DNA of 64,000 nucleotides, taken from positions 14,233 through 78,232 of the forward strand of contig JANYKG010000119.1 of the NCBI GenBank assembly GCA_025358205.1, given 5' to 3'. Below, in pieces: positions 2,867 through 60,260 of the stretch. The position numbers and the translations under genes were made by a program. Position 1 is the first letter of the stretch, and every line of letters begins with the position of its first letter. This stretch comes from Armatimonadota bacterium. Its GTDB lineage: Bacteria; Armatimonadota; UBA5829; DTJY01. Below the pieces are notes generated by a model. The model had not been told where the DNA came from, searched no databases, and worked only from the letters and a program-made list of their open reading frames with translations.

Positions 2867-3421
2867 TCAGTGGTCGGCCTTGCCGATGACGTTTTTCAAA
2901 TCCGCGATGAACTCATCTGCGTTTTCGGGGCTGATCACTACCTTTCGCCTGGCATCTATGAGGACAGACTGCTTGAGGTTGGTCACGGTGGCGTAGAAGC
3001 CGCCGACCTCCCTCTTCCAGAAGTATCCTGTCACGCTGAAAAGACCGCCGATCCCGAAACTGCGGATGGTCAGAAGTGTGAACTTGAAGCGGCGCACGTC
3101 GCGCACGTCGGCAAGCGGGATGACAGTGCTCCCGAACGGCCACCCACGGTTTATCACGATGGCGTTCTCCCTGATCTCGTATGAGTAGCCCTTTACCTGC
3201 CAAGTGAAGAGCACAATCAGTATCAGAAAGCCCGACTCTGCCAGGGATACCACATCGTGATGGCCGATCAGCACCATCATGACCATCAGGAAGAGCGTCC
3301 AAACGGATATTGTCACCCCCAGCGTTATGCCGTCCATCGGCGCAGCACGATAAGTCTTCATAACAGCCTCCAATCGAACCTTCTCTTGAAATGACGATTC
3401 TTCCTTCATTCCCTTACTCAT
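2867..3421 (-). CDS. membrane protein with bacterial PH domain (YdbS/YdbT-like)
   Basis: 184 aa. Two TM helices followed by a soluble PH-like domain. Weak pattern similarity only. Confidence 0.4.
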   Translation of the reverse strand: MSKGMKEESSFQEKVRLEAVMKTYRAAPMDGITLGVTISVWTLFLMVMMVLIGHHDVVSLAESGFLILIVLFTWQVKGYSYEIRENAIVINRGWPFGSTVIPLADVRDVRRFKFTLLTIRSFGIGGLFSVTGYFWKREVGGFYATVTNLKQSVLIDARRKVVISPENADEFIADLKNVIGKADH

Positions 3422-3460
3422 CAGACACGCGAACGGGCAGGCAGTTGCATTGTAGAAACC

Positions 3461-3486
3461 AGTTCACGTATCACTCATCACTCATC
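3461..3486. repeat. GTGATGAGTGA-family element (agttcacgtatcactcatcactcatc), identical 26-mer at 29305-29330
   Basis: Exact 26-bp match between the two loci, read directly. Confidence 0.85.
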
Positions 3487-3564: not shown

Positions 3565-6195
3565 TTGCATGGGATTAGGACGATCAACCCGGCCTTGTCA
3601 ATAGGGCATCACAGAAGTACATCGGGACTGGGAGAGGGGGCATTTGTGAGGAAAACAGCTCTTATCACCCTTGCTGCAGGAGCCAGCTTGGCTGCGATGC
3701 TTATCATCTCAGCGGTTAACAAGCTGCAGGAAACCGCCGTGCAGCCGGATCCTTTCGCCGCAGTCGCGTGGCTTACGGCGGTCATGGCAATTGCCGTCGC
3801 CGTTGTCATGTTTGCCGAGTACTTCATCCACGGCAGGCAGGCGCACCTCTATCTGGGCAGTTCATTCCTTGCTGTCGGCGTGCTTGGCATTTGGGACGCT
3901 CTCACGTTCCCATACAAGGCAGCCTTCCAGGATGCAAGCCATTCTTGGTCCTATCTACTGATCTGGCAGCTCCAATGGCTTACTCTAGGACTGGGCCTGC
4001 TCTACGGCATGGTTCAGGGTAAGAAGTTCAACGCCAAAGATCAAGTCATCAGCCGATCTGCAGTCGCTGCGCTGATAGGCGTCCTGTACGCAGCGGCAGC
4101 CATTTTCGCCATTACCTCATTTGTCAGCCAGGATGCCGCTTCGGCGGACTGGGTTCCCAGCGCGGGGATGATAGTCAGCCTGGTATGCGTCGGCATATTT
4201 GCGGTTGCGCTTGTGGGATACGGGCGCGGGTCGGTCCACAGAAACAACGCCATCATAACCTGGATGGCTTACGGCCTCATCTTTGGCATGCTCGGCCAAC
4301 TCGCCATGGGACTGTCCAGCCAGCCGAGCGCCGCGCTCTTCTGGTTCGCGAACGTGATGAAGATCATCGTGTTCCTTATGCCGCTGCTGGGCATGCTCGC
4401 AGAACACACCCGCCTTCAGGTCCGGCTGCGCGACCAGGCCTATCACATCACCAACATGGTTCAGTCTCAGCAAGCCGTGACCTCGCTGGTAAATCCTGCT
4501 GACCTGTATGCACGTCTGGCCGAGATCGCTCGACAATCGTTCAGCGCCCGTGCGGCGTGCCTGCTTCAGTTTGAGAAAGACCGGGGCCTGCTCAGGGTCT
4601 CCGGCCACTCCGGGCTTGATGAGGATTCGGTTAAGCGACTGATTTTCCGTCCAGGCGAAGGCCCGGTCGGCGACGCGTTTTCGGACAAGCAGATAGTCGT
4701 CGTCCCGGACCTGCTTGAAGACAGGTCAATGGGTCAGCGGCTGGACGGCATGGGCGAGATCACCACCGGCGTGTTTGCGCCGCTTGTCACCAGGGACGAG
4801 AGCAAGGGCGTGCTCGCGCTCTTCTTCTCTGGTCGGCACACCCACAAGCTCGGCAAGGATCAGCTCAGGCTTCTGGACGTTATTGCGACTCAGGCGGCTA
4901 TGGCGGTGGAGGAGAACAACCTGCGCGATCGCATCTCGGACTCCTCGCGCACGTCCGGCGGATATGCCCAGGAACTGGAGATGGTGTGGGAGATCGGCAG
5001 GGCGGTCGGCTCCGAGTTGGACCTGCACACCCTGGTCGCCACGCTTTCGGACAAGCTTAAGGGTGCAGTTGCAGCCACCGAGTGTTCGGTGTTGCTGTTC
5101 GAGCCTGATCTGGTCGGCATGAAGATACTGGGCAACAAGAAGCTTACCCGCTACCACAGCGCCGCAGAGCACGTAGACCAGTGCGATGCGGTGGCCGTCA
5201 CGGTCGCGCGCCGGAACGAGGCCGTCATCGTAAATGATGTGCCGAACAGTTGCCACTGCAAGTTCCCGGAGTTGCAGTGCGAGGACGGCGGGGTTCACCA
5301 TCTGCTGTGCGTGCCCATGAACCTGCGCGGGTTCACGGGGGCCATCAGCGTCTTCCGGCGCAACGGCGATGCATTCGGCGAGGGCGAGAAGCGGCTGCTG
5401 ATGAGGTTGGCGCCGGTGGTTGCGGCGGGGCTTCGGAACGCCGAGCTTTACGAACGGGAAGCTTCCATCGCGCGAAACCTTGAGGAGAGCCTCAGGAGCC
5501 GAGTGGAGCAGGAGTTGACCGGCATCGCGGTCAGCGGCGCATATCAGGCAGCGTGGGATGAGTCGCTGGTCGGCGGCGATTTCTACGATGTGATTGACTT
5601 TGGAAACGGCAAGTACGGAGTGGCTATCGGCGACGTCTCGGGCAAGGGCGTGGAGGCTGCGGTGTACACCGGCATGACCAGGTACATGATTCAAGCCTAC
5701 TCCGCTGATGATATTGACCCGGTGTACGTGGCATCCAAGCTGAACGCAGCCCTTTGCCGCTACACGCCGATTGGGAAATTTGTCACTGTTGTCTACGGCG
5801 TGGTGGACACAGACGCAAAGACGCTCACCTACGTGAACGCGGGTCACGAGACGCCGTTCATCCACCGCAGGGAGACCGGCAAGCTGGATACCCTGGCATC
5901 AACCGGCCCGGCTGCGGGCGCGATTGAAGAAGGCCAGTACACATCTGAGACCGTAGACTTCGGTCACGGTGATACTCTTGTACTGTACACCGATGGGGCG
6001 ACCGAGGCACGGCATGACGGCAAGTTCCTGGGTACGGACGGACTGCAGAAGATGCTCATCGAGCTGGTTCCGAAGCATCCAGACGATCTGCCGGAAGCGC
6101 TGATTGCCGCTATTAAGGCCTACGCGAAGGGCCGCCTGCGCGACGACATTGCGGTGCTGACCGTGACCGCGAAGAAGCCCGGGGCGTTGTTCTAG
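3565..6195 (+). CDS. membrane-anchored GAF-domain PP2C-type serine phosphatase (RsbU/SpoIIE family)
   Basis: 876 aa. N-terminal multi-TM region, central GAF-like regions, and a C-terminal PPM/SpoIIE domain (GDFYDV...GDVSGKG...DGATEA). A GTG at 3646 preceded by a G-rich SD is an alternative start. Confidence 0.8.
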   Translation: MHGIRTINPALSIGHHRSTSGLGEGAFVRKTALITLAAGASLAAMLIISAVNKLQETAVQPDPFAAVAWLTAVMAIAVAVVMFAEYFIHGRQAHLYLGSSFLAVGVLGIWDALTFPYKAAFQDASHSWSYLLIWQLQWLTLGLGLLYGMVQGKKFNAKDQVISRSAVAALIGVLYAAAAIFAITSFVSQDAASADWVPSAGMIVSLVCVGIFAVALVGYGRGSVHRNNAIITWMAYGLIFGMLGQLAMGLSSQPSAALFWFANVMKIIVFLMPLLGMLAEHTRLQVRLRDQAYHITNMVQSQQAVTSLVNPADLYARLAEIARQSFSARAACLLQFEKDRGLLRVSGHSGLDEDSVKRLIFRPGEGPVGDAFSDKQIVVVPDLLEDRSMGQRLDGMGEITTGVFAPLVTRDESKGVLALFFSGRHTHKLGKDQLRLLDVIATQAAMAVEENNLRDRISDSSRTSGGYAQELEMVWEIGRAVGSELDLHTLVATLSDKLKGAVAATECSVLLFEPDLVGMKILGNKKLTRYHSAAEHVDQCDAVAVTVARRNEAVIVNDVPNSCHCKFPELQCEDGGVHHLLCVPMNLRGFTGAISVFRRNGDAFGEGEKRLLMRLAPVVAAGLRNAELYEREASIARNLEESLRSRVEQELTGIAVSGAYQAAWDESLVGGDFYDVIDFGNGKYGVAIGDVSGKGVEAAVYTGMTRYMIQAYSADDIDPVYVASKLNAALCRYTPIGKFVTVVYGVVDTDAKTLTYVNAGHETPFIHRRETGKLDTLASTGPAAGAIEEGQYTSETVDFGHGDTLVLYTDGATEARHDGKFLGTDGLQKMLIELVPKHPDDLPEALIAAIKAYAKGRLRDDIAVLTVTAKKPGALF

Positions 6196-6249
6196 GGAAG
6201 GTGTTTGGTGGTAGGCGCTAGGTGTTAGGGAATACCAGGGGAGGCTGCC

Positions 6250-10697: not shown

Positions 10698-10766
10698 AGC
10701 GAAAGGTTCCTGGTGTCAGGTGTCAGGAACCCGAAACCGGGAACCCGACACCCGTTACCCTATATC

Positions 10767-15486: not shown

Positions 15487-15745
15487 GACACAAACCGTCC
15501 ATTACCAAGAAGTCCTGAGCCTGGTCGAAGGGCGTATCGAGGGACCATCCAGGCTGTTGCCACAGTCTCTTCATCCCTGCGTCCGGGGAACGCAACCATA
15601 AAGGTTGCGGCTACAGGTTACTCGGGATTCGGAAATCCCGTGCCAACATTATCGTATGCTTCTCGGCGTTCCGTGCATGATCTCGGGGAAAGCCCGAAGC
15701 GCTGCACCAAGAAACCAATGCAGGAACACAACATTTGCATACATG

Positions 15746-15775
15746 TTGACTAACGCCTCGCCCAACTGCTATAGT
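15746..15775 (+). promoter_or_regulatory. candidate sigma70 promoter, TTGACT-N18-TATAGT
   Basis: Read directly. It lies inside the 5' part of track ORF 15605-17764, which argues that the membrane protein starts downstream of it. Confidence 0.4.
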
Positions 15776-15811
15776 GAGGCCGAACAACGATCTTCTCCGC
15801 AGGACGGGTAC

Positions 15812-17764
15812 TTGACAAACGCACCAAAACTCCGCGCAGGCATCGGCTTCCGGGCGATACTTCTCGGCCTGCTGCTGATACCCATCAACTGCTACTGGGT
15901 CACCATGACCGAGATCAAGTTCTGCAGCAATGACAGCACCTGCGTATCACTGTTCATGACTGTCGTCACCATCCTCTTCTTTCTCACGCTGCTGAACATC
16001 CTGGTCGCCAAGCGGTTTCCCGGTGCGGCGCTGAACCAGGCGGAGTTGATGGTCGTCTATATCATGCTCAGCATATCAACCGCCATGTGCGGGCACGATA
16101 TGATGGGAAATCTGCTGCCAAACCTGATAAACGTCTTCTACTTCAACACGCCGCAGAATGGGTGGGATAAGTTCCACCACTTCATACCCACATGGTTCGC
16201 GCCAAGAGACAAGGAGATTCTGCGCGGGTTCTACGAGGGCAGCAGCACACTGTACACCGCGGCGCACCTGAAGGCGTGGGCGATACCTATGGCGGTGTGG
16301 ACCAGCTTCCTGATGGTCATCGGCTACATCATGCTCTGCACAAACACCATCGTCCGCAAGCAGTGGGCGGACCGCGAGAAGCTCACGTTCCCCATCATTC
16401 AGATGCCGCTTGAGATGACCAAGGACGCGGGCATGTCCGGCTTCTTCTCGAACAAATACCTCTGGATCGGATTTGCCATCCCGCTTGTGCTGCAGTCGCT
16501 GAACGAACTCAACTTCTTCTATCCCAACGTGCCATCTGTGCAGATCAAGCTGCTGGATATGGGGCAGTTCATCACCACGCGCCCGTGGAACGGAGTAGGG
16601 TGGTTCCCCATTGCCTTCTATCCGTTTGCCATCGGTCTGGCGTTCTTTCTGCCTGCGGATCTCTCGTTCAGTTGCTGGTTCTTCTACCTCTTCCGCAAGG
16701 CGATGGACGTGTTCGCGGTAGGCATGGGCTGGCGTGATCCGGGCGCGAGTCCGGCCATGCAGAGGTTCCCGTACTTCGCGGAGCAGTCCGCCGGCGCATG
16801 GATAGCTCTCTCGCTCATTATGGTCTACTCCAGCCGTAAGTACCTGTGGCAGGTGATACTCCGCGCGATGGGTAAGGACTCGGAGCTTGATGACACGATG
16901 GAGCCGATGTCATACCGGTCGGCGATCATCGGCATTCTCATCGGGTTGCTGCTGATCTTCATGTTCTGCCAGGCGGCGGGGATGGATTGGTACGTACCCA
17001 TCATCTTCTTCGCGCTGTATTTCATCGTGTGCATCGCCATCACCCGCATACGCGCGGAACTGGGGCCGCCCGCGCATGAGCTGAACTTCTTCCGGCCAGA
17101 GGAGATAATGACCGCCGCGTTCGGCACCCAGGCGCTGGGCGCGCAGAACATGACGATAATGACCTACTTCTACTGGTTCAACCGCGGCTATCGAAACCTG
17201 GTGATGCCGCACCAGTTGGAGGCCTTCAAGATCGGCGAGGTAGCAAAGGCGAACAACCGGAAGATAGCGGGTATCATCATGCTGGCGACGTTTGTGGGCA
17301 TAGTGGCCACATTCTGGGCGCTCCTGCACATGTACTACATCAACGGCGCCGCCACCGCCAAGATACAGGCGGGCTACCGCACCGGCATCGGCAGCTATGC
17401 GTTCGACCGGCTGAACGGGTGGGTGATAAATCCGAAGCGTGTGGACACTTCAGGGGTCAGCTTCATGTTCATCGGCGCTGCGATTGCGCTCGTCCTGACC
17501 CTCATGAAGGGGCAGTTCCTCTGGTGGCCGTTCCACCCCATCGGCTACGGCCTCGCGGTGAGTTACGCGATGGACTACTTCTGGTTCACCACGCTGATCG
17601 GCTGGGGGTGCAAGGCGCTCACCACGCGGTACGGCGGCATCAAGATGTACCGTCAGGCACTGCCGTTCTTCATGGGCCTCATCCTGGGCGACTATGTGAC
17701 AGCAAGCCTCTGGGGTCTGGTCGGCTGGGCGCTGAACGTGACGACCTACCGGACGTTCATCTGA
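15812..17764 (+). CDS. large polytopic membrane protein (about 14 TM), hypothetical
   Basis: Long hydrophobic ORF with no recognisable catalytic motif. Start chosen at in-frame TTG 15812 (MTNAPKLRAGIGFRAILLG...) downstream of the predicted promoter; this start is uncertain. Confidence 0.5.
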   Translation: MTNAPKLRAGIGFRAILLGLLLIPINCYWVTMTEIKFCSNDSTCVSLFMTVVTILFFLTLLNILVAKRFPGAALNQAELMVVYIMLSISTAMCGHDMMGNLLPNLINVFYFNTPQNGWDKFHHFIPTWFAPRDKEILRGFYEGSSTLYTAAHLKAWAIPMAVWTSFLMVIGYIMLCTNTIVRKQWADREKLTFPIIQMPLEMTKDAGMSGFFSNKYLWIGFAIPLVLQSLNELNFFYPNVPSVQIKLLDMGQFITTRPWNGVGWFPIAFYPFAIGLAFFLPADLSFSCWFFYLFRKAMDVFAVGMGWRDPGASPAMQRFPYFAEQSAGAWIALSLIMVYSSRKYLWQVILRAMGKDSELDDTMEPMSYRSAIIGILIGLLLIFMFCQAAGMDWYVPIIFFALYFIVCIAITRIRAELGPPAHELNFFRPEEIMTAAFGTQALGAQNMTIMTYFYWFNRGYRNLVMPHQLEAFKIGEVAKANNRKIAGIIMLATFVGIVATFWALLHMYYINGAATAKIQAGYRTGIGSYAFDRLNGWVINPKRVDTSGVSFMFIGAAIALVLTLMKGQFLWWPFHPIGYGLAVSYAMDYFWFTTLIGWGCKALTTRYGGIKMYRQALPFFMGLILGDYVTASLWGLVGWALNVTTYRTFI

Positions 17765-17992
17765 CGAGTGATACGTGAGCTGGGTCCGGTAGCTTCCCTT
17801 CCGACTTGGATGTTGGAAGTTCGACGTTGGTCCGCTGCGGCGGATCGATGTTCGTTTCTGCCGCTCCCATACTCCCATACTGCATTCTTGCAGGAACTCC
17901 TCACCATTCGGCGGAATAGTAAGCAGTCGTAAGTGGCGTTAGGGCAGTGATCTGCGCCCGGTGGAGCGCCTTCTTCGCACGAGGAGCAATCT

Positions 17993-21195: not shown

Positions 21196-23940
21196 TCATT
21201 TCTGTGCCGGTTCCGTGTAAGGTCCGGCTATCACCAGCGTGTACTTGTTCGGCCGCAGATATTTCTTCGCGGCGGCATTCACCTGCGCGAGCGTGACTCC
21301 TCTGTAAAGCGACTGGTATTTCCTGATGTAATCCATGCCCAGCCCGTAGAACTCCGCGCCGTGCAAGGTCTGCGCTATGGACGCGTTGTCCACAAGCCGC
21401 CTGGCCGGGAACGACCCCGCAATGTAGTCCACCGCGCGCTGCACCTGATCCGCTGTCTCACCATTGTCGCGAATCTTGGCAACCTCGTCCTTCAGTGCCT
21501 TGATGGCTTTGTCCACGTTCTTCGCATTTGTGCCCAGGTAGGCATACCACGCGCCGGCGCCGAGTCCCGCGTCGAAAGTGGTATAGACGTTGTAGACCAG
21601 ACCCATTTCGTCGCGTATCTTATATCCGAGCTGGCTGCCAAGCGCACCACCGCCGCCCAGAGAGTAGTTCATGATGGTCGCCGCGTAGAAATCGGGGTCG
21701 GATCGCTTGAGCTGACCGGCATAACCAAGCAGCACGCTGACCTGGGACTTATCCGGCATGGGGATGACCTTTTTCACATCTTCTGTCTGAACCGGAACAG
21801 TGGATATCTGCGGTCGTGTGGCTGGTCCCGTCGGCTGCCATTCGCCGAAGCGCTGCTTCACCCCTGCAACGGCGGCTTGCGGGTCTACGTCGCCTACTAT
21901 CACAAGGATAGCGGTTTGCGGGCCGTAGTGCGCCTTGTAGAAGGCAAGAACGTCATCCCTGGTGACGGCCTTGGTATCGGCGGTCTCTTCATCCAGGGTT
22001 AGCGCATGCAGCGGGTGGCCTTTGGGGAAGACCGCGCCTGAGAACGCGCGGAAAGCCATGGCGTCAGGGTCATCCTGCTCTTGCTTGATGCCGGAGAGCC
22101 TGCGCGCCGTCAGCTTGTCGAACTCGGTCTGCGGGAAGTTGGGGTTCCGCAGGGTGTCGGCCAGGATGTCCAGCAGCAGGTCGAAGTGCTTTGATAGAGA
22201 GCGTCCTGAGAACGAGGCGGACTCCGTGTCCGCGCTCGCCCCGATGCTCATGCCCACGAAGTCTTTCTCCTGCGCGATCTGGTCGGCTGTTCGCTTGGTG
22301 GTGCCTTTCTGCAGGAGTCCGGCGGTGATCTGCGCGAGACCGCTCTTGCCCTCGGGATCGAGAAGGCCGCCTGCGTTGAGGCTGCCCTGAATGGCCACGG
22401 TGGGGTTGCTTCTGTTCGGGTAGACGATCACCACCAGGCCGTTGTCGAGAACAACGCGGGTAGGCGCCACTAATTTCGGATTTCGGATTTCGGATTTCGG
22501 ATTTGTCCGGAGTTTGGAGTCTGGAACTTGGAATTTGGAACTTGGAGCTTGCAGGCTGTCCCGCTTGTACGCACAGTACCTGTTCCCATCCCACTGTTCA
22601 CTGTTCACTGATAACTGTTCACTGGTGCGCTGCTTCACCTCCGGCACGAAAGTCACCACATTCATATTCTTCTCGGTCAGGTACTTCTGCGCCACCCGCT
22701 GGATGTCCGCTTTGGTCACCTTACGCACGTTCGCGAGATATGTGTCCAGGAACCGCCATGACTTGATGGTCTCGAAGTAGCCCAACTGCTCAGCCTGATC
22801 CGTCACGCTGTCGTTCCCATAGATGAACGAGGACTCCAACTGGTTCACCGATTTCTGAAGCTCCTGGTCGGTGATCGGCTCGGATTTGATCTTCTCAATC
22901 TCGGCCAGCATCGCCGTCTGCACGTCCGCCAACTTCACGCCGTCCCGCGCCGTCGCACCCAACAGGAAAAGGTCGGGGTCGCGGTTGGTGGTCGAGGACG
23001 CATATTCAGAGGTGACGAGCTGGGTATCTACCAGTTCCTTGTACAGACGACTGCTCGCCCCGCTGTCAAGAACCATCTGAATGATATCGAGCGCGTATGA
23101 GTCAGGGGCGCCTATCGCCGGAGTGTGGTAGCCGATAAGTAGCCTATCTGCCGCGCCGGCTTTGGTTATCACCGATTCCTGCTTGCCGAATTGCGCCGCT
23201 TCAACTGAGGTTACCTTCGGAGGCGTCGGACCCTTTGGTATCTTGCCAAAATACTTGTTCACAAGCGCTAACGCCTTATTGGTATCGAAGTCGCCTACTA
23301 TCACCATCGTGGCGTTGCTCGGCCCGTAGTTCGATTTGTAATACTTGTAGAGGTCGTCGCGAGTCAGGCTGCGAACATCGTTGCTCCAGCCGATTGTGGG
23401 CCAGTGGTAAGGATGCTCCTTGAATGCCAGCGCGTACATCTGGTAGTACATCAGGCGGTCGGGGTCGTTCTCATCGCCCTCCAGTTCGGAGAGCACCACG
23501 GTTTGCTCGGACTTGAACTCCTTGGCGTCAATCACGCTGTTCACCATGCGGTCCGCCTCGATCTTCATGGCCAGTTCCAGGTTGTCGCTGGAGAGCGCCT
23601 CCCAGTAGTACGTCCAGTCCTTCCAGGTGGCCGCGTTGATGATGCCGCCCTTCTGCTGGATGAGCCTGTCTATGTCGCCCTTTTTGAGCGTCTTGGTGCC
23701 CTTGAACTGCATGTGTTCCAGCAGGTGAGACATGCCGGTCTTGCCGAACGGTTCGTTCCGCGAGCCGACCTTGTACCAGACGTTGAAAGCCACCACCGGC
23801 GCGGCATGGACTTCCTTGGTCAGCACCTTCAACCCGTTCGGCAGGACGGTCTCCTTGACCAGTGCATCGGCGCCGAAAGCAGACTGTGCGATGAGTAAGA
23901 TGACCCAGATGATAGTCAACCGAAAAGCTCGTGTTCTCAC
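21196..23940 (-). CDS. fused two-module M16 (pitrilysin/PqqL-like) zinc peptidase
   Basis: 914 aa. Signal peptide; inverzincin motif HLLEHMQFKGT in module 1; module 2 lacks HxxEH. The inter-module linker (SSKFQVPDSKLRTNPKSEIRNPK) is encoded by the heptamer repeat arrays at 22473-22552. GTG start. Confidence 0.8.
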   Translation of the reverse strand: MRTRAFRLTIIWVILLIAQSAFGADALVKETVLPNGLKVLTKEVHAAPVVAFNVWYKVGSRNEPFGKTGMSHLLEHMQFKGTKTLKKGDIDRLIQQKGGIINAATWKDWTYYWEALSSDNLELAMKIEADRMVNSVIDAKEFKSEQTVVLSELEGDENDPDRLMYYQMYALAFKEHPYHWPTIGWSNDVRSLTRDDLYKYYKSNYGPSNATMVIVGDFDTNKALALVNKYFGKIPKGPTPPKVTSVEAAQFGKQESVITKAGAADRLLIGYHTPAIGAPDSYALDIIQMVLDSGASSRLYKELVDTQLVTSEYASSTTNRDPDLFLLGATARDGVKLADVQTAMLAEIEKIKSEPITDQELQKSVNQLESSFIYGNDSVTDQAEQLGYFETIKSWRFLDTYLANVRKVTKADIQRVAQKYLTEKNMNVVTFVPEVKQRTSEQLSVNSEQWDGNRYCAYKRDSLQAPSSKFQVPDSKLRTNPKSEIRNPKLVAPTRVVLDNGLVVIVYPNRSNPTVAIQGSLNAGGLLDPEGKSGLAQITAGLLQKGTTKRTADQIAQEKDFVGMSIGASADTESASFSGRSLSKHFDLLLDILADTLRNPNFPQTEFDKLTARRLSGIKQEQDDPDAMAFRAFSGAVFPKGHPLHALTLDEETADTKAVTRDDVLAFYKAHYGPQTAILVIVGDVDPQAAVAGVKQRFGEWQPTGPATRPQISTVPVQTEDVKKVIPMPDKSQVSVLLGYAGQLKRSDPDFYAATIMNYSLGGGGALGSQLGYKIRDEMGLVYNVYTTFDAGLGAGAWYAYLGTNAKNVDKAIKALKDEVAKIRDNGETADQVQRAVDYIAGSFPARRLVDNASIAQTLHGAEFYGLGMDYIRKYQSLYRGVTLAQVNAAAKKYLRPNKYTLVIAGPYTEPAQK
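22473..22552. repeat. heptanucleotide tandem arrays: [ATTTCGG]x4 followed by [ARYTTGG]x6 (reverse complements GAAATCC / TTCCAAN)
   Basis: Seen directly; in frame within the M16 peptidase linker. Confidence 0.85.
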
Positions 23941-27581: not shown

Positions 27582-28484
27582 GTGGAATCAAGTGCCAAAA
27601 CCGCCGTCGTGTACTCGTATGCGAAGATAAATCTCACGCTGGATGTACTCGGAATCAGGCCGGACGGTTATCATGCCATCGAGAGCGTGATGCAGACCGT
27701 TGGCCTGCACGACACGCTGACCTTAACCCCTAGGGATGATCCCGGCATAAACATCATCTGCAGCACACCGGGGATACCGACCGACGAGCGGAACCTGGCG
27801 CACAAGGCAGCGTCTTTGATGCTTGCCAAATGCGGTGTTGGGATTGGGTTGGATATCCATATGGAAAAACGAACACCCAGCGAGGCCGGTCTGGGCGGTG
27901 GAAGCAGCAATGCGGCGGCCGTTCTGACAGGGCTGCACAAGCTCCTGGATTTGGTGGTCGGCCCGGATGAGATGCTCGGCATTGCAGCGCAGATCGGTTC
28001 AGATGTGCCGTTCTTTCTGGCTGGTGGAACCGCGCTGGTACGGGGGCGCGGCGAAGAAGCGCTGCCGCTGCCGGACATGCCCGAGGCGTGGATTGCCATA
28101 TTGAAGCCGTCGTTCGGCGTCTCCACACCGTGGGCCTACAAACGGTTGGATGAGATGCGAACCATCGCCCGTGAACGTTCTGACGCGTCGAAGCGTATGA
28201 CAAAGTGCATACGCGCGGGCGAATGGGACTGCATACCGGAGCTGTTGAGCAACGACCTAGAACTACCGGCGCTGGAACGTCACCCGCAGATCGGGCGACT
28301 CAAGAACGAGCTTCTCAATGCCGGAGCGAGCGCGGCGCTGATGTGCGGAAGCGGCTCTGCGGTGTTCGGTTTGTTCGACAGTGAGAGTCAGGCGCAGGCA
28401 GCAGCGAAGTCCCTGGCCAAATCTGATATACAGACGTTCGTGGTGAGGACTATTTCCAGTCGGGAGAGACCGAAAAATGGCTGA
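27582..28484 (+). CDS. ispE: 4-diphosphocytidyl-2-C-methyl-D-erythritol kinase
   Basis: AKINLTLDVLG...GYH...GHSM-kinase motifs (PSEAGLGGGSSNAAAVL). Conserved ksgA-ispE synteny. Confidence 0.9.
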   Translation: MESSAKTAVVYSYAKINLTLDVLGIRPDGYHAIESVMQTVGLHDTLTLTPRDDPGINIICSTPGIPTDERNLAHKAASLMLAKCGVGIGLDIHMEKRTPSEAGLGGGSSNAAAVLTGLHKLLDLVVGPDEMLGIAAQIGSDVPFFLAGGTALVRGRGEEALPLPDMPEAWIAILKPSFGVSTPWAYKRLDEMRTIARERSDASKRMTKCIRAGEWDCIPELLSNDLELPALERHPQIGRLKNELLNAGASAALMCGSGSAVFGLFDSESQAQAAAKSLAKSDIQTFVVRTISSRERPKNG

Positions 28485-29262
28485 TCAGAAGAACGGAATC
28501 CCGGCAGTGGTACTCGCGGGTGCGCTTGCCGAGCCTGAGATGAAGGCGAAGTACGGCATAGAAAACCGCGCCGAGTTACCCATCGGCGGCAAGTCCATGA
28601 TTCAGCACGTGCTGGACGCGCTTCTTGCATCGCCAAGCGTGGGCGGCATCACGGTGGTCGGCGAGGTGGCATGCGAAGGCGCGGAGAGAATCATTCCGTC
28701 TGCGGGCAGCCTGGTAGACAACCTCCTGGCGGGGGTTCAGGCTTGCGGCAAAGAAGGCGGCATGGCGCTGATGGTGACATCCGATATCCCGATGCTGTCA
28801 TCAGAAGCCCTGGAGGATTTCATCGCCAAGTGCGGCGAGACCGAGGCGGATTTTTACTACGCAATCATATCCAAGGAGACGAATGACGTAAGGTTTCCCG
28901 GCATGGAACGAACCTACTGCAAGCTGGCGGAAGGCACGTACACCGGCGGAAACGTCATGCTGCTGAACTCACGGGTGATAGTGGAGAACGCCGGGCTGAT
29001 AACCGACTTGATGGCCGCAAGGAAGAAACCTCTCAAACTTGCTGGTATAATAGGAATGCGGTTCCTGGTTCGGGCGGTGCTTGCGCAGACCGTGTGGCCG
29101 GGCGCCCTGAAGATATCGTTCGCGGAGCAGACTGTGGGGCGAATAGTACATGCGAGGCTGAAGGCGGTTCCGACAACTTACGCCGAGATTGGGGCCGATG
29201 TGGACAAGATGGAGCACGTGGAGTTCGCAGAAGCGGCGATGGGGATGACCCGTGATAAGTGA
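28477..29262 (+). CDS. nucleotidyltransferase-fold protein (NTP_transferase superfamily, divergent Gly-rich loop)
   Basis: 261 aa. AVVLAG...ELPIGGKSMIQHVLD resembles sugar/cofactor nucleotidyltransferases but lacks the canonical GxGxR. Overlaps the ispE stop by 8 nt. Its stop TGA is embedded in a GTGATGAGTGA element. Confidence 0.45.
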   Translation: MADQKNGIPAVVLAGALAEPEMKAKYGIENRAELPIGGKSMIQHVLDALLASPSVGGITVVGEVACEGAERIIPSAGSLVDNLLAGVQACGKEGGMALMVTSDIPMLSSEALEDFIAKCGETEADFYYAIISKETNDVRFPGMERTYCKLAEGTYTGGNVMLLNSRVIVENAGLITDLMAARKKPLKLAGIIGMRFLVRAVLAQTVWPGALKISFAEQTVGRIVHARLKAVPTTYAEIGADVDKMEHVEFAEAAMGMTRDK

Positions 29263-29330
29263 TGAGTGAACAGCCCCGGGTGATCAGAGATGGCCTCGGA
29301 AGACAGTTCACGTATCACTCATCACTCATC
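29259..29330. repeat. inverted pair of GTGATGAGTGAAC elements forming a long hairpin at the 3' end of the NTP-transferase gene
   Basis: Left arm gtgatgagtgaacag, right arm cagttcacgtatcactcatcac. The stop codon TGA is part of the left arm. Confidence 0.75.
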
Positions 29331-29353
29331 AGAGAAGGTGACCTGAAATAGCA

Positions 29354-31249
29354 ATTCTGGAATCAATAACCAGTCCTGCTGATCTCAAGAAGCTCTCATC
29401 GGAGCAGTTGAGAGCGCTCGCGGTGGAAATTCGCGAGGAGGTCATTGAGCAGGTCTCCAAACTGGGAGGGCACCTCGCGTCGAACCTTGGCGTGGTGGAG
29501 CTAACGCTTGCCTTGTACACCGCCTATGACCTGCCTGCTGATACCGTCATCTGGGACGTCGGCCACCAGTGCTACACCCACAAGCTGCTCACCGGCAGAT
29601 ACGGCAGCTTCGATACGCTTCGGCAGTTCGGCGGGATCAGCGGGTTCCCCAAACGCGATGAAAACCCCTACGACCGCTTTGGCGCGGGCCATGCCAGCAC
29701 GTCCATATCGGCGGCGCTGGGTTTCGCAAAAGCTCGCGATCTGAAGGGCGGCTCGGAGCACGTGGTGGCGGTGATAGGTGACGGCGCACTTACCGGCGGC
29801 ATGGCATGGGAGGCGCTGAACAACGCCGGTCATCTGAGGACTAACCTCATGGTGGTGCTGAACGACAACGAGATGTCCATCTCAAAGAACGTCGGAGCCA
29901 TGAGCACCCACCTCAGCAAACTCCGCATGCAGCCGCTTTACAGGAAAGTTGAGCATAAAGCCAAGGATGTGATATCCAACCTGCCGATGGGCGAGGCTAT
30001 TTCACGAACCGCAGAGGGTCTGCTCCACGGCGTAACACACCTCATGGCCGCGCAGACCGGTATCATATTCGAGGAACTGGGCTTTAAGTATTTCGGACCG
30101 ATTGACGGCCACGACACGGACCTGCTGATCGAGGTGTTTCGGAATCTGCGGACTTTTGAAGGCCCGGTGCTGGTGCATGTGCTGACGAAAAAGGGCAAGG
30201 GCTACGAGCACGCGGAGAAGAATGCTCGGCTGTTCCACGGCGTATCGGCGTTCCAAGTGGAGAACGGCGCGGCGCGGAAGATATCCGGTGGCAAGAGCTT
30301 CACCGATGTCTTCTCGGAAGCCGTCATCGAGTTGGCCGAACAAGACGACCGCGTCGTAGCCATCACTGCGGCCATGCCCGACGGGACCGGTCTGCAGCGC
30401 TTTGCCGAGAAATTCCCGACCCGGTTCTTTGACGTCGGCATCGCGGAACAGCACGCGGTGACCTTTGCAGCGGGGCTGGCGGCCGGTGGATTGCGTCCGG
30501 TGTTTGCGGTCTACTCCACATTCCTGCAGCGCGCTTACGATCAGATTGTCCATGATGTCTGCCTCCAGAATCTGCCGATTGTTTTTGCTATAGACCGCGC
30601 GGGGCTGGTGGGCGATGACGGCCCTACTCACCACGGCGCTTTCGACCTCTCCTTCCTTCGGCACGTGCCGAACATGGTGGTTGCCGCCCCCTCCGACGCG
30701 CGCGAGCTTAAGGAAATGCTGGCGCTGGCGCTAACCCACGATGGCCCGTTCGCTATACGATACCCTCGCGGGTTGTGCCCAGACTCGACGACCGGCTCAG
30801 TTGCGCCCGTGGTAATCGGCAAGTCAGAGGTTCTTGTGGACGGCGACGATGTGTGTGTAATAGCGATCGGCTCGGCTGTGGGCATCGCGGTCGAGGCAGT
30901 GGATTTGCTGCGCGCACAGGGAATCTCCGCGGCGCTAATCAATGCGCGTTTCGTGAAACCGCTGGACGAGGAGACCATTCTCTTATACGCTAAGCGCACT
31001 AGGCGTGTAGTGGTGGTTGAGGAAAACTCCGTGCAGGGCGGATTCGGAAGCGCAGTGGCGGAGCTTCTGTCGGAAGAGCGTCTTTCCGACGTTGCGATCA
31101 GGCAGATCGGGCTGCCTGATGAGTTTGTGGGCCAGGGCGCTCAGATGCTCCTCCGCCAGTTCCACGGTCTCACCCCGGAACACATTGCGAGGACTGCTGC
31201 CGAGATGGTGGTGCAAGTTTCCTCACAAGGCGCAGGACGAGACGATTAG
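29354..31249 (+). CDS. dxs: 1-deoxy-D-xylulose-5-phosphate synthase
   Basis: [16 protein letters not shown]...[17 protein letters not shown] and TPP-binding GDG motifs. The conserved N-terminal block [14 protein letters not shown] lies upstream of the TTG at 29408. There is no ATG or GTG between the in-frame stop at 29339 and 29408, so the start was placed at ATT 29354; this is uncertain. Confidence 0.85.
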
Positions 31250-31460
31250 GGAGCCGTCTCAACCGCTCAACTTCCCTTCAGCTAGACCCAACTGCACACG
31301 GGATCTCATGTGATGAGACGATCATTTCGCACAAAACGGCCAGCCTGCTAAACGGGTCACCAACTTTCTTTGGCGAATTTTGTAGAAATGATCCGAATGG
31401 CACGATTCTTGCAGGTATTATTACCAGAAAGAAACATTCTTTCTCCTTCCATACCTTGAG

Positions 31461-31491
31461 CCCATTGCAACACGCAGTGGGCCATTTTTTT
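31461..31491 (+). terminator. intrinsic terminator-like hairpin (CCCATTGC-AACAC-GCAGTGGG) followed by a T7 run
   Basis: Read directly. Downstream of dxs (stop 31249). Confidence 0.5.
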
Positions 31492-31613
31492 GCGCTAGAC
31501 TGAAGGTGAAAACAAGTTTTTTCTCGCAATGCGCGGAAAAACGGGGCGAATGGCATGATTCTTGCAGGTATTATTACCAGAAAGAAACATTCTTTCTCCT
31601 TCCATACCTTGAG

Positions 31614-31644
31614 CCCGCTGCAACACGCAGTGGGCCATTTTTTT
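31614..31644 (+). terminator. second copy of the terminator-like hairpin plus T7
   Basis: Stem CCCGCTGC/GCAGTGGG with one mismatch, then TTTTTTT. Confidence 0.45.
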
Positions 31645-31685
31645 GGCAGGAAGGCTTGCTTCTGCGGTGCCACCTACGGGGTAAC

Positions 31686-39213: not shown

Positions 39214-40122
39214 TTACTGCTCATTGATAACTGATTCGTCCTCTGCCATCTCGGCTGCTTTTCGCCGCTTCTTGATCTGCCGGGCGCGGAAGGCGAAGAC
39301 CGCCAAGACCGCCATCAGGCCCGAGACCAGCGAGGTGAGAATGCGCATCGTCCGTGCCGTGCCGTATTTATCCCAGAGGTACTTCTGCCAGTCATCGTCG
39401 AACTGCTCCGGCGTTCGGCCAATGCTGTTGAAGAGCGCGGTCGGGAACAGCTCGCCCTTCTCCAGTTCGCCAAACAGGTCAAGCAGCGACTGAGGGCTGT
39501 ATGTGTCCGCCATGTATTTCACCGCCGAATAGCTCTCCACATATGCCGTGGACAGACCATCATCGTCCGTGGGAAATGCGCGGGATAGCTTGGCGAGGGG
39601 GATGATGTGCCCGCCGCCCGCGGTATCGGCCAGCTTGTCCGCGTCGTTGCCGGTCCAGTCGCCCGCCCAGTATTTCGCAAGGCCTTCGTGCATCCAGATC
39701 GGCAACCGGGTCGCGCTGCCCTTCAGCCGCTGGTAGGTGAAGATATGGACCAGTTCGTGCGGTATCACACCCGCCACTGATGTGAATGCCCCGGAAGCGT
39801 CCACCTGGATTCTTCGCAGTCGAACGTGCGCCAGCCCGACGATGCTGCTGCCGGGAGCGTATCCGGTGGCGGCGGAAAAAGCGCGCCGGTCGGGGTAGAG
39901 GTAGATCGGCACCGTGCCGACCGAGGTCAACTGCATCTTCTGTGCGAGGATCGCCTGCCATTTCTCGGCGGTGTCGCCCGCCCACTGCGCGACGGACTCA
40001 TCGCCGGCGGTGTAGTAGATCATGAAGTGGTTGGTCCGCATCACGCGCCACTGCACATCGGCCCGGGCGCATTGCCCGAGCAGTGTGAGCAGAACCATCA
40101 TTGTGACGAGCAGCCGTTTCAT
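39214..40122 (-). CDS. secreted peptidase-MA-like zinc metalloprotease (HExxH) with C-terminal TM anchor
   Basis: Signal peptide; HELVHIFT...MHEGLAKY; C-terminal hydrophobic helix and a basic tail. Confidence 0.5.
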   Translation of the reverse strand: MKRLLVTMMVLLTLLGQCARADVQWRVMRTNHFMIYYTAGDESVAQWAGDTAEKWQAILAQKMQLTSVGTVPIYLYPDRRAFSAATGYAPGSSIVGLAHVRLRRIQVDASGAFTSVAGVIPHELVHIFTYQRLKGSATRLPIWMHEGLAKYWAGDWTGNDADKLADTAGGGHIIPLAKLSRAFPTDDDGLSTAYVESYSAVKYMADTYSPQSLLDLFGELEKGELFPTALFNSIGRTPEQFDDDWQKYLWDKYGTARTMRILTSLVSGLMAVLAVFAFRARQIKKRRKAAEMAEDESVINEQ

Positions 40123-40153
40123 GATATCGGCAGTCTAGCACATCCTAGGGAAA

Positions 40154-40190
40154 ACTTCCAACATTCAACTTCCAACCTCCAACATCGAAG
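40154..40190. repeat. heptamer array [TTCCAAC]x5 (cttccaacattcaacttccaacctccaacatcgaa)
   Basis: Seen directly; intergenic, upstream of the 40282 start. Confidence 0.85.
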
Positions 40191-40281
40191 GGCAGATGCC
40201 CGTCACCCAACAAAGGAGCCAGGCATATCCGAGTCGAACGTTATGCCAACGGATCTCGTATTCCAAGAAGAGGTAGTTCAC

Positions 40282-42042
40282 ATGAAAACAATCTGTGCAG
40301 CGGCTCTGATACTGCTGATCTCAGCTTCTGTACTCGGGGCTGCTCAATCGAAGAGGAGTGAAACGATGATGACACCTAGTGCCGGGCGCATCATAGTCGT
40401 GCCGGACCAGGCGAGTCCGGTCGTGCTGTATGCCGCGAAGGAGCTTCAGTATTTCCTCGGCGAGATCAGCGGAACCAAGCCGATCATCGCGAAGGAAAGC
40501 AAGTCGGACGGCAAATCCGCGTTCGTGATTGGCCCATGCAAGCGCAGTGTGGATGTACAGAAATCGCTCAAAGGTCTCCGCGAAGACGGCGTACTTATCA
40601 AGTCCGTGGGCAACGACATCGTGCTCCTCGGTCAGAACGACCGCGGGCAGCTCTACAGCGTCTACGTGCTGCTAGAAAAATTCATGGGCGTGGAGTTCCT
40701 AGCGCGCGACTGCACCGTTATCCCCAAGAGGAGCAAGATAGTGCTGTCGGAGATAGACTACGCTTACTCGCCGCCGTTCATGTACCGTGAAACGCTCTAC
40801 TGGGACAGCTTCCCGAAGGAGATCGCCACGCGTCAGCGGCTGAACGGCCCATACGCGAAGGTCGGCGCCGACGTAGGCGGGAAGATACAGATATTCCCCT
40901 ACGTCCACAGTTCCGCCAAGCTCGTCCCGCCGTCGAAATACTACGCAGAGCATCCCGAATACTTCAGCCTGATCGGTGGCAAGCGGACGAACCAGACCGT
41001 CCATGGCCAGCTCTGCCTCACGAACCCGGATGTCCTCAAGATCGCGACTGCTGAGGTGATGAAGTGGATCAAGGAAAACCCGGATGTCCCTATCTTCGAC
41101 GTCTCGCAGAACGACGGAAACGGCGCGTGCGAGTGCGACAAGTGCATGGCGGTCGTCAAAGAGGAAGGCTCGCAGCACGGCCCGATCATGCGGTTCGTGA
41201 ATGCGATTGCTGACGAAGTAGCGAAAAAATACCCAGACAAGTGGATCGAGACGCTGGCATACGCGTACTCCACAAAGCCCGGCTCGATCACCCTGCCGCA
41301 CAAGAATGTCATCATCCGCCTGTGCCACGCGGGCTGCTTCTTCCACGGGTTCGAGCAGTGCGGGCTGGGCGCAAACTTCGCCAACTATATCAACGAATGG
41401 AGCAAGCAGACCGACCGGATCTTCATCTGGCACTATGCCACCAACTTCGCGCACTACATCGCGCCGAACCAGAATCTGAACGGGCTGGCCAAAGACATTA
41501 AATACTACGCCTCGCACAAGGTCAATGGGTTGATGATTCAGGGCGACTACGAGAGTCCGGGCGGTGAGCTGGCCGAACTGAGGCAGTACCTGTCCGCACG
41601 GCTCATGTGGGACCCCAGCCTCGACCCGATGGAGATCAGGCGAGAGTTCTGCCAGGGTTACTACGGCGCGGCGTCGGCAGACGTGCTGACGTACCTGGCG
41701 CTGATGGACAAGACGGCGGCAGACCCGACCAGGCACGCGTTTGCCGCGTGGGACCCGAAGACCACTATGCCCGACACCGTGCTCGCGGACGGCCTGAAGC
41801 TGATCGAACGCGCTCGGAAGCGGTCACTGACCCCGGAGCAGGCTGGTCGGGTGGACAGGCTCTTCCTGCCGATGTGGTACATGCAGTTGACCTATCCTGA
41901 TGCCTACGGATTCGACGTGTCCAAAGCCCCCGCCGTCGTCAAGGAATTCAGGCGCGTCGTCAAGGCAAGCGGCATCACCCGTATCCGCGAAGGCGGCGAC
42001 ATCGAAACTTGGCTGAAGGAGATGGAGACGAAGTATCCCTGA
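40282..42042 (+). CDS. secreted DUF4838-like putative glycoside hydrolase (GH20-related fold)
   Basis: Signal peptide from ATG 40282 (SD AAGAAGAGG). CECDKC motif. Overall resemblance to DUF4838 proteins. Its stop TGA is embedded in a GTGATGAGTGA element. Confidence 0.45.
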   Translation: MKTICAAALILLISASVLGAAQSKRSETMMTPSAGRIIVVPDQASPVVLYAAKELQYFLGEISGTKPIIAKESKSDGKSAFVIGPCKRSVDVQKSLKGLREDGVLIKSVGNDIVLLGQNDRGQLYSVYVLLEKFMGVEFLARDCTVIPKRSKIVLSEIDYAYSPPFMYRETLYWDSFPKEIATRQRLNGPYAKVGADVGGKIQIFPYVHSSAKLVPPSKYYAEHPEYFSLIGGKRTNQTVHGQLCLTNPDVLKIATAEVMKWIKENPDVPIFDVSQNDGNGACECDKCMAVVKEEGSQHGPIMRFVNAIADEVAKKYPDKWIETLAYAYSTKPGSITLPHKNVIIRLCHAGCFFHGFEQCGLGANFANYINEWSKQTDRIFIWHYATNFAHYIAPNQNLNGLAKDIKYYASHKVNGLMIQGDYESPGGELAELRQYLSARLMWDPSLDPMEIRREFCQGYYGAASADVLTYLALMDKTAADPTRHAFAAWDPKTTMPDTVLADGLKLIERARKRSLTPEQAGRVDRLFLPMWYMQLTYPDAYGFDVSKAPAVVKEFRRVVKASGITRIREGGDIETWLKEMETKYP

Positions 42043-42067
42043 TGAGTGACGAGTGATGAGTGAACTG
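42039..42067. repeat. GTGATGAGTGA-family element (ctgatgagtgacgagtgatgagtgaactg) with TGA in all three frames
   Basis: At the stop of the DUF4838-like gene. Confidence 0.8.
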
Positions 42068-42085
42068 CAGGTGGGGGTCTGAGCA

Positions 42086-48372: not shown

Positions 48373-48400
48373 ATCTGATATCTGAGATTTGAAATCATCT
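48373..48400. repeat. heptamer array (atctgatatctgagatttgaaatca) of the GAAATCY family
   Basis: Seen directly; intergenic upstream of the GH-like gene. Confidence 0.7.
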
Positions 48401-53534: not shown

Positions 53535-53575
53535 TGTTGAATGTTGAATGTTGGACGTTGAGTGTTGGACGTTCC
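53534..53575. repeat. heptamer array [RYGTTGR]x6 (reverse complement TTCCAAC family)
   Basis: atgttgaatgttgaatgttggacgttgagtgttggacg. Confidence 0.85.
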
Positions 53576-59948: not shown

Positions 59949-60037
59949 CCGCGTCGGACGTTGTGTGATTGCTTGACCGTACTCACCTTCCGATGTACGA
60001 TGTATGTAGGTTCGCATTCGTCAGGTGTGGAGGCATC

Positions 60038-60259
60038 ATGCATCAGGTAACAATCGGTGATAAGTACCAGGTGACTATCCCGAAGGAGATTCGGGAGAAG
60101 CTGGGTATCAAGCCGGGACAGAGAGTTCTGGTGACTGCGTCAGGCGGCGGCATCACGATTCAGCCCGAACCCGGCGGCGGATCCGATGACCGGTTGACCC
60201 AGATCACTCATCACGTATCACGCAGCCCTGACACCTGGAACCGGACACCCGGAACCTGA
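60038..60259 (+). CDS. AbrB/MazE/SpoVT-family swapped-hairpin DNA-binding protein (antitoxin-like), orphan
   Basis: MHQVTIGDKYQVTIPKEIREKLGIKPGQRVLV is the classic looped-hinge-helix pattern. The ATG at 60038 gives about 74 aa. Confidence 0.6.
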   Translation: MHQVTIGDKYQVTIPKEIREKLGIKPGQRVLVTASGGGITIQPEPGGGSDDRLTQITHHVSRSPDTWNRTPGT

Positions 60260-60260
60260 A

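Follow-up and report, generated by a model that had tools for sequence, protein, structure and literature searches.

Heptad-phased GTGA arrays and their head-to-head doublets: a widespread, apparently undescribed intergenic repeat family seen in an Armatimonadota genome

GTGA arrays of the window and the genes they adjoin

The 64,000-nt stretch of DNA analysed here (the window; GC content 58%) was taken from the Armatimonadota bacterium assembly GCA_025358205.1 (contig JANYKG010000119.1, positions 14,233 to 78,232 of the forward strand) and carries short arrays of a 7-nt repeat, both as single arrays and as a head-to-head pair between an ispD-like gene and dxs. DnaE of the window matches best to Armatimonadota metagenome-assembled genomes (59-71% identity), and homologs of its Dxs are likewise labelled Armatimonadota. 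Read on the GTGA strand, each copy is a phased array in which a constant GTGA is followed by three variable bases. The window holds six (GTGANNN)n arrays and one related (GTGAACA)n array, none being expected by chance, and the density of GTGA arrays is 78 per Mb.

The head-to-head pair is located inside an ispE/ispD-like/dxs gene string, immediately 5' of the ribosome-binding site of dxs. Its 5' arm (29252..29271, + strand) consists of the units GTGATAA, GTGATGA and GTGAACA; the NTP_transf_3 (ispD-like) gene 28477..29262 terminates on the TGA at 29260-29262 of this arm, with another TGA in the same frame right behind it. The loop or apex (29272..29304) comprises 33 nt with a small inner stem. 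The 3' arm (29305..29332, - strand; CTGATGA, GTGATGA, GTGATAC, GTGAACT) comes to within 2 nt of AAGGTGA, the dxs ribosome-binding site. A hairpin between the inverted copies, as claimed by an earlier reading of the sequence alone (the sequence-only reading), is supported by folding of 29252-29332 at -35.6 kcal/mol (z = -3.1 relative to shuffles). Covariance models of Rfam 15 gave no match at 29000-29400 at E<=1, and only two tRNAs reached the gathering score window-wide. The adjoining dxs has a conserved N-terminus without a canonical start (29334-29356): all four dxs orthologs show AGGTGA-N12-ATT followed by a conserved (I)LE-x-I coding sequence, which suggests an ATT start codon at 29354, while gene callers start at 29408 or 29423.

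Four further arrays are single. Array 'a' (3455..3486, - strand; GGATGA, GTGATGA, GTGATAC, GTGAACT, ending in GTGAACTGG) lies in the divergent spacer between the genes 2867..3421 (-) and 3565..6195 (+). The degenerate array 'f' (17761..17778, + strand; CTGACGA, GTGATAC, GTGAGCT), which was absent from the list of the sequence-only reading, contains the end of the DUF6785/DUF6784 gene 15605..17764, whose stop codon is the first TGA of the array (17762-17764). The first TGA of array 'c' (42039..42066, + strand; CTGATGA, GTGACGA, GTGATGA, GTGAACT) is likewise the stop codon of the DUF4838 gene 39826..42042, and the array takes up most of the 43-nt spacer ahead of the ATG at 42086. The last GTG of array 'c' opens a mini-ORF (open reading frame), VNCRWGSEQ* (42060-42089), whose TGA overlaps the next ATG (ATGA, 42086-42089); this overlap could be due to chance (about 5%) or could be a coupling device. 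Array 'e' (60203..60226, - strand; GTGATAC, GTGATGA, GTGATCT) is antisense to an AbrB/MazE-like ORF (59969..60259, + strand) that reads through it; the domain of this ORF covers aa 26-68, and its C-terminal ~25 aa are encoded by the antisense GTGA array and a 14-mer array. The gene hydF (60317) lies 90 nt downstream of the array, beyond 14-mer and hexamer arrays at 60230-60301. The related (GTGAACA)n array (22592..22624, - strand) is one of three heptamer arrays within 22470-22624.

The copies resemble each other closely. The exact 26-mer AGTTCACGTATCACTCATCACTCATC, on which the sequence-only reading was founded, occurs on the + strand at 3461-3486 and 29305-29330 (0 expected from shuffles), and a copy with three mismatches is found at 42041-42066 (- strand). 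The identity between 3455-3486 and 29299-29330 is 94% over 32 nt and includes 9 nt on the loop side. For GTGATGAGTGA, allowing at most one mismatch, nine matches were counted in the window, with 1.25 expected, and the phased pattern GTGANNNGTGANNNGTGA occurred five times (3464, 29252, 29308, 42046, 60204), compared with 0.00 in shuffles. Tandem Repeats Finder (TRF) reported a period of 7 with 2.4-3.4 copies at 3470, 29314 and 42040. The related copies and the dispersed family that had been proposed are thus real, with 5-6 phased arrays where none is expected.

Since GTGA contains TGA and a period of 7 is not a multiple of 3 (the two are coprime), the GTGA strand stops every frame within three units, the TGA triplets being placed at offsets 1, 8 and 15; a stop in every frame had been attributed to the doubled unit. 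An element with stops in all frames can therefore abut the end of a gene or extend into its last codons, and thereby provide its stop. Three ORFs of the window end on an element TGA (28477..29262, 39826..42042 and 15605..17764), the first two of which are those for which a stop codon within the element had been claimed, at 29260 and 42040.

Distribution, stop codons and polarity of the family

The exact 20-mer GTGATGAGTGATACGTGAAC had no match among GTDB species representatives, so the species of the window is not among them. The 18-mer GTGATGAGTGATACGTGA was found at at least 120 loci in JGI metagenomes (GC 0.31-0.73) from soils, lakes, sediments and sludge, and a 16-mer of the array was also widely matched in IMG/VR viral contigs. 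A BLAST search of PLSDB plasmids and INPHARED phages with a synthetic 53-nt array gave no match, probably because of low-complexity masking, and is uninformative. The metagenome statistics on units, stop supply and single arrays given below were drawn from among the matches listed, and genes at these loci were called by a codon model (coding fraction 0.80).

Arrays at the metagenome loci contain 3-16 units. In flanking units that were not constrained by the query, the information content is 0.5-0.9 bit at each GTGA position and 0.12-0.33 bit at the three spacer positions; because the bits are concentrated on GTGA, the core is constant and the spacer free, and the family is hence not a decaying pure simple sequence repeat (SSR). 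The spacer preference is contig-specific (GTGATGG/GTGATAG at 72% GC, GTGAAAC/GTGATGC at 44% GC). Carrier contigs hold ~175 GTGA arrays per Mb together with ~140 other heptamer arrays per Mb. One carrier (L275, 73% GC) was assigned to Gemmatimonadales by its Mfd homologs, and another (L413) is a podovirus-like phage according to PHROGs (internal virion proteins, tail fibre, endolysin). The family thus spans at least two bacterial phyla and phages, and the possibility that all carriers are Armatimonadota was ruled out by these two contigs.

About 95% of the GTGA arrays fall outside coding sequence, which makes up 80% of the DNA; the apparent exceptions, within ~100 nt of the start of the longest ORF, are an artefact that arises because the TCAC strand is open. 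ORFs of at least 100 codons ended on an array TGA for 37 of 101 arrays among the matches listed, compared with 114 of 2259 controls (5%). In an unbiased set of 90 head-to-head elements with adequate flanks, to which the same threshold of at least 100 codons was applied, 80 of 180 sides supplied the stop codon, compared with 38 of 970 controls, and both sides did so in 23 elements. Stop offsets within the array were +1, +8 and +15 in about equal numbers. Overall, overlap with stop codons is 7-11 times that of controls. The placement at gene ends that the sequence-only reading had proposed therefore stands with respect to stop supply, which is far above chance, but not for the copies at 3461 and 60203, which show the TCAC strand and lie upstream of + strand genes.

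An inverted partner accompanies ~40% of the arrays among the matches listed and lies without exception on the downstream side of the GTGA array (44:0; 80:0 when all arrays of at least three units are counted), with loops of 7-42 nt between the arms. In a complete scan of IMG/VR for both arrangements with 4-34 nt between arms, GTGA(x3)-N4-34-TCAC(x3) was found in 97 stretches, many of them with several elements, and the reverse TCAC(x3)-N4-34-GTGA(x3) in five. These five (L331-L335; IMG/VR, GC 0.65) represent two distinct loci of one contig family with the layout (TCACCAG)3-4 - ~25 nt - (CTGGTGA)3-4, and their unit GTGACTG is unlike that of the main family. As the stop-bearing strands of a doublet always point outward, ribosomes coming from either direction terminate in the first arm they meet, ahead of the stem; outward-facing stops in all frames are the sole property found to separate the favoured from the avoided polarity. 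In phage L413, five doublets lie between co-oriented genes, the stop codon being in the 5' arm and a Shine-Dalgarno (SD) sequence and ATG directly after the 3' arm. Four podovirus-like contigs of IMG/VR (L413, L354, L386, L399; GC 0.56-0.58) show a head-to-head GTGA-heptad hairpin at almost every late-gene junction, with an A/T-rich palindrome (TAAAG..CTTTA or TTTT) at the apex, a layout reminiscent of the RNase III sites between genes of T7.

Taken together, these data make it close to certain that the arrays form a heptad-phased intergenic family, (GTGAYRM)n, with a conserved core, stop supply, head-to-head doublets and rapid turnover with conservation of the arms. It is equally close to certain that the family occurs in two forms, as single arrays of 3-16 units and as doublets of the type (GTGANNN)n-loop-(NNNTCAC)n.

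Copies at unrelated loci were also compared. Two pairs of loci (L233/L265 and L251/L274) have whole doublets in common, including the loop, in flanks that are otherwise unrelated; unit number differs between the dispersed copies L233 and L265. Other assemblies of the population to which the window belongs are identical in unit number (the window and contig JAYSNH010000161.1 of GCA_043723985.1 agree in sequence throughout their overlap), and homologous metagenome clusters consist mostly of identical sequences. In five homologous soil loci (L219, L250, L270, L306, L311) with 80-85% identical flanks, the 18-mer array is identical and is followed by a conserved SD sequence and a mini-ORF of 9-10 codons (MP[ND]NF[KE][FIL]...), which may encode a leader peptide.

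Such copies would be expected if the hairpin were the replicative unit of a REPIN-like mobile doublet, moved by a RAYT or another hairpin-specific transposase, with single arrays as decayed halves and the polarity inherited from the unit. The near-identity of the two pairs of doublets extends through the loop into a short flank in different contexts, the 32-nt identity in the window reaches 9 nt past the array on the loop side, doublets and singlets co-exist with presence or absence varying among close orthologs, and the polarity is strict. Nevertheless, neither the window nor the surroundings of the copies showed a transposase, although no systematic search was made; target-site duplications are not evident, the unit number of the arms varies in the manner of an SSR (3-16), the heptad architecture is unlike that of known REPs, and genome-specific spacer preferences fit local evolution equally well. 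This explanation is considered very unlikely.

REP/BIME and REPIN elements are repetitive extragenic palindromes of Proteobacteria. The GTGA arrays share with REP/BIME elements that they are short, dispersed, extragenic and high-copy, are enriched next to gene 3' ends and occur between cistrons, form inverted doublets that fold into long hairpins, exist as singlets and doublets side by side, and vary in presence among relatives. They differ in that their arms are direct 7-nt arrays, whereas the REP unit is an imperfect palindrome of 20-40 nt; in that GTGA recurs in phase every 7 nt, as opposed to the single 5' GTAG/GT(A/G)G head of REP; and in their SSR-like variation of unit number and built-in all-frame stops used by the flanking genes. 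No Y1 transposase (RAYT) was found among the 20 of ~47 window ORFs that were scanned against Pfam. The REP/BIME-like character suggested by the sequence-only reading accordingly holds as a functional resemblance but not as membership, given direct heptad arms with neither palindrome nor GTAG head and no RAYT seen.

Heptamer-rich context and turnover among orthologs

The GTGA arrays are one family among ~20 period-7 arrays with unrelated units that TRF reported in the window, a genome-wide heptamer-repeat phenomenon that the sequence-only reading had not mentioned. The other units include TCCGCAC, TGCAGAC, AGGTGTT, TGCGTAC, GGTGTCA, AACCCGA, TCCGAAA/ATTTCGG, TGGAACT, CACTGTT, AACTTCC, AATGTTG and others. 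Exact self-match runs at lag 7 numbered nine in the window, compared with 0.2 in shuffles and 0-3 at other lags; a looser criterion gave 11 lag-7 arrays and 0-2 at other lags. A control of 1.41 Mb from 80 other genomes contained nine lag-7 runs and one three-unit GTGA array, the latter in the second-closest relative, and the density of period-7 arrays in the window is ~20 times that of these 1.4 Mb. Relatives with 70-82% Dxs identity carry the same unit families at different loci. The genome is of the heptamer-rich type described for Nostoc, Xanthomonas and Beggiatoaceae, and the many heptamer families in such genomes make tandem growth of the slippage type a plausible source of the GTGA arrays.

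About a dozen more short-period arrays of the window, mostly of 7 or 14 nt and with unrelated units, are nearly all flush with stop or start codons (1282-1310, 2718-2745, 6199-6229, 10400-10427, 10712-10754, 18874-18906, 40153-40186, 48373-48396, 53530-53567, 60230-60256 and 63714-63777); for example, 1289-1310 begins at the TAG of glyS, 6199 is 3 nt past a stop codon, and the array at 53530 shares bases with a TAA. Two relatives (L326, L328) have units in common with the window, TCCGAAA and GCAGTCT. A hexamer array, (GAGTAN)n, is located at 60262-60301, directly upstream of the hydF ribosome-binding site, and GAGTAN arrays also occur in the ispD-like/dxs spacer of two relatives (L326, ~9930-9950; L327, ~6725-6770), making GAGTAN a second recurrent short-repeat family, of period 6. 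In Armatimonadota relatives (L123, 3033-3073 and 6963-6982; L125, 9255-9288), (CCCCAAT)5.9 and (CCCCCAA)4.9 lie just upstream of dnaE, and (CGGTGAT)2.9, exactly complementary to GAUCACC of the 16S tail, lies 34 nt after the dnaE stop. The CCCCAAT unit is presumably that of STRR1 in cyanobacteria and is complementary to the GGGGATT repeat of Nostoc. A 914-aa ORF (21196-23940, - strand) contains two complete M16 peptidase halves joined by a linker of ~50 aa that is encoded wholly by heptamer arrays (22470-22624, - strand; ATTTCGG x4.6, TGGAACT x4.3, CACTGTT x4.7), and either arose when two genes fused across a repeat spacer free of stops or is an artefact of the open frames of the repeats.

The ispD-like/dxs spacer was followed through the orthologs of dxs. 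In L203 (Dxs 82% identical) both arms are nearly unchanged, TGATGAGTGAACTG ... AGCTCACGTATCACTCATCACTCATCA, and the loop is not conserved and cannot be aligned. In L202 (Dxs 81%) there is no element and the stop codon of the ispD-like gene falls within the dxs ribosome-binding site, and in L204 (Dxs 80%) the element has decayed. More distant relatives carry other short-period arrays in the same spacer, often of the TCAC type just 5' of the conserved GGTGACCTGAAATAGC start region. The comparison of L202, L203 and L204 indicates rapid turnover with conservation of the arms: the element is gained, lost and replaced on a short time scale, with arms that, where present, are far better conserved than neutral spacer.

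These observations bear directly on the explanation that the arrays are neutral SSRs, in which 7-nt slippage fills spacers, purifying selection clears ORFs and the positional patterns are passive. The many unrelated heptamer families of the window and its relatives, the fact that other heptamer families abut stop codons too (median 5 nt) and the different arrays in orthologous spacers are in line with it, as is the report that no class of long SSR is more abundant in prokaryotes than heptanucleotides (Mrazek 2007, as cited by PMC4679880 and PMC4692102). Neutral slippage does not, however, account for the restriction of variation to positions 5-7 in more than 100 arrays at 31-73% GC, a polarity of 20:1 to 80:0, arms kept while the loop diverged in an ortholog with 82% Dxs identity, whole-doublet copies at unrelated loci, or an identical core in two phyla and phages, and is distinctly unlikely as the explanation of the family.

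Regarding described families, head-to-tail 7-nt units, an excess of period 7 in non-coding DNA and several unit families in one genome are features that the GTGA arrays have in common with heptanucleotide repeats. The TAACTGA direct repeats known from Beggiatoaceae, Cyanobacteria and Bacteroidetes (MacGregor 2015, PMC4679880) are similar in being heptamers arranged in tandem between genes, with 2-6+ units and 'split' sets that include related 7-mers, in their patchy occurrence across phyla, and in that the forward orientation stops all frames whereas the reverse is open, with some sets overlapping ORF ends (PMC4679880). In the register CTGATAA, the TAACTGA unit is one base from the GTGATAA unit found here. 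On the other hand, 147 of 170 TAACTGA sets point to a downstream start and end ~1 nt before it, and a single inverted pair was reported (PMC4679880), whereas GTGA arrays occur in both orientations and ~40% of them form head-to-head doublets hugging stop codons. The cyanobacterial STRR and the GGGAATC / GGGGAYT repeats of Xanthomonas and Nostoc also show intergenic over-representation of period 7 with several unit families per genome (PMC4692102). These repeats occasionally form inverted pairs with stem-loop potential, lie near ORFs and are variable in length and sequence between close relatives, but are G-rich, are discussed as G-quadruplex formers and contain no stop codons, and neither a strict doublet polarity nor stop supply has been reported for them (PMC4692102).

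Possible roles of the doublets

The explanation favoured here is that the doublet acts on the transcript as a stem-loop at gene ends and between cistrons, without being a canonical intrinsic terminator; it is held tentatively, at just short of an even chance. The doublet would be transcribed into a long imperfect stem-loop, which may serve in 3'-end protection or processing, or in attenuation, by analogy with the hairpins of REP/BIME elements and the RNase III sites of phages; the built-in stops would let doublets sit on gene ends, and single arrays would be half-elements or precursors.

The intrinsic terminator was itself rejected as a candidate. In an intrinsic terminator, a short loop closes a GC-rich stem of 5-20 bp, and a U-tract starts no more than 2 nt beyond it. 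The GTGA doublet resembles them in placing a stem-loop immediately downstream of stop codons, sometimes in common to convergent genes, but its stem is long, imperfect and not GC-rich, with no U-tract behind. At the window pair the sequence after the stem, CAGAGAAGG, contains no U-tract and a terminator scanner made no call, so that the terminator-like stem of the sequence-only reading was not upheld. Genuine terminators of the hairpin+T7 type were found nearby at 31460-31492 and 31613-31645. They form the ends of two tandem 99-nt copies downstream of dxs (31394-31492 and 31547-31645, + strand) that are 97% identical, each ending in a GCCC..GGGC stem followed by T7; the copies show weak, sub-threshold similarity to the suhB/mmgR small RNA family (E 0.14 and 0.42) and are candidates for duplicated small-RNA genes.

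Apart from the missing U-tract and scanner call, several results weigh against a role in the transcript. The doublet of the window is probably internal to an operon. Single arrays in tandem gene contexts showed no orientation bias among the matches listed (11 sense, 16 antisense), and gene 3' ends faced the stop-bearing head in 21 and the tail in 25 cases; given this lack of bias, the stop function is not selected in single arrays. Stem mismatches gave no excess of G·U on the sense strand (seven on each strand). Complementarity of the arms at the spacer positions was 0.651, compared with 0.609 under a within-contig null (p = 0.22); a between-contig null gave 0.646 and 0.432, a signal that disappeared once the null was built from arms of one and the same contig. 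No selection on RNA structure could thus be detected. Finally, the unrelated heptamer families alongside suggest that part of the pattern reflects a generic mutational process.

The equal orientation of single arrays, the lack of G·U asymmetry and of arm covariation, the core conserved at fixed phase with a free spacer, and the strict polarity of the inverted arrays, which is typical for operators, are all compatible with arrays of operators in duplex DNA. In this case a protein would read GTGA/TCAC every 7 bp and polymerise along the array, stops and hairpin being by-products. A precedent exists in the ribbon-helix-helix protein omega/ParB of plasmid pSM19035, which binds 5'-WATCACW-3' heptads with the same ATCAC/GTGAT core and 7-bp period, in sets of 7-10 direct and inverted units (PMC9499535). 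An array (GTGATAA)n, read as (AGTGATA)n, is a perfect W-GTGAT-W heptad, although in the window only one unit in three matches WATCACW exactly. The parS heptads are, however, contiguous, with at least four in a row, restricted to three promoter regions of one plasmid and served by a known ribbon-helix-helix protein (PMC9499535), whereas GTGA arrays occupy hundreds of chromosomal and phage spacers with arms separated by loops of 7-42 nt. Their favoured polarity, GTGAT...ATCAC, is the opposite one, divergent in omega notation and not the high-affinity arrangement (PMC9499535). Neither a candidate protein nor an Omega-like gene was found among the window ORFs scanned, ~80-175 arrays per Mb would need a global factor, and the overlap of 44% of sides with stop codons is left unexplained. 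An operator function of this kind is unlikely.

A translational device has also been considered, in which GUGA(U) would pair with the 16S tail (AUCAC of GAUCACCUCC), chained GTG/TGA restarts would couple genes, or UCAC would mimic the anti-SD sequence. GTGA is the classic 4-nt start/stop overlap, each frame of (GTGANNN)3 offers a mini-ORF of 5 codons, the frame opened by the last GTG of array 'c' at 42060 ends on a TGA overlapping the ATG at 42086, the arrays adjoin SD sequences, and one relative (L123) has (GGTGATC)n, an exact complement of GAUCACC. Complementarity to the anti-SD (GUGAU:AUCAC) was rejected as an explanation, as flanking positions do not lengthen the pairing: the base before GTGA is mostly A or C and not G, and position 6 is G or A and not C. 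With single arrays antisense as often as sense, and the other heptamer families left unexplained, such a device is scarcely credible. The stem-loop reading favoured here and its rivals are not all mutually exclusive.

A more specific version of the stem-loop reading, which is somewhat unlikely, would regard the head-to-head GTGA hairpin as a dedicated gene-boundary cassette present in more than one phylum, with a core read by a conserved factor (RNase III-like, of the KH/CSD type, or a duplex binder). GTGA would combine overlapping GTG start and TGA stop, and the 7-nt phasing would end translation in any frame and from either direction just before the stem-loop. The carriers cited for the cassette are the Armatimonadota metagenome-assembled genome, the contig assigned to Gemmatimonadales and the podovirus-like phage contigs.

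The closest known kind of element is the intergenic heptanucleotide repeat (STRR, GGGAATC/GGGGAYT and especially TAACTGA), and in functional terms REP/BIME; at the same time the GTGA arrays lack defining features of REP/BIME elements, intrinsic terminators, omega operators and the TAACTGA family. A full-text search of the literature gave no description of GTGA-phased arrays or their polarity, and nothing relevant on heptamers of Armatimonadetes. The arrays thus apparently represent a widespread, undescribed family that is neither a classical REP nor a classical terminator.

Gene callers extend ORFs through the arrays because the TCAC strand is open in all frames, and in practice naive ORF lists placed starts within arrays and showed apparent fusions, namely the M16 pair and the AbrB-like tail. 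Among long simple repeats of intergenic DNA in prokaryotes, heptanucleotides are the most over-represented, and none of their families has an established mechanism or function (PMC4692102, PMC4679880). The GTGA family offers handles that other heptanucleotide families lack, namely a 4-nt core kept across 31-73% GC and at least two phyla plus phage, an almost absolute doublet polarity and a quantitative link to stop codons, and these make the hypotheses of a stop before a hairpin, an operator or a mobile doublet testable.

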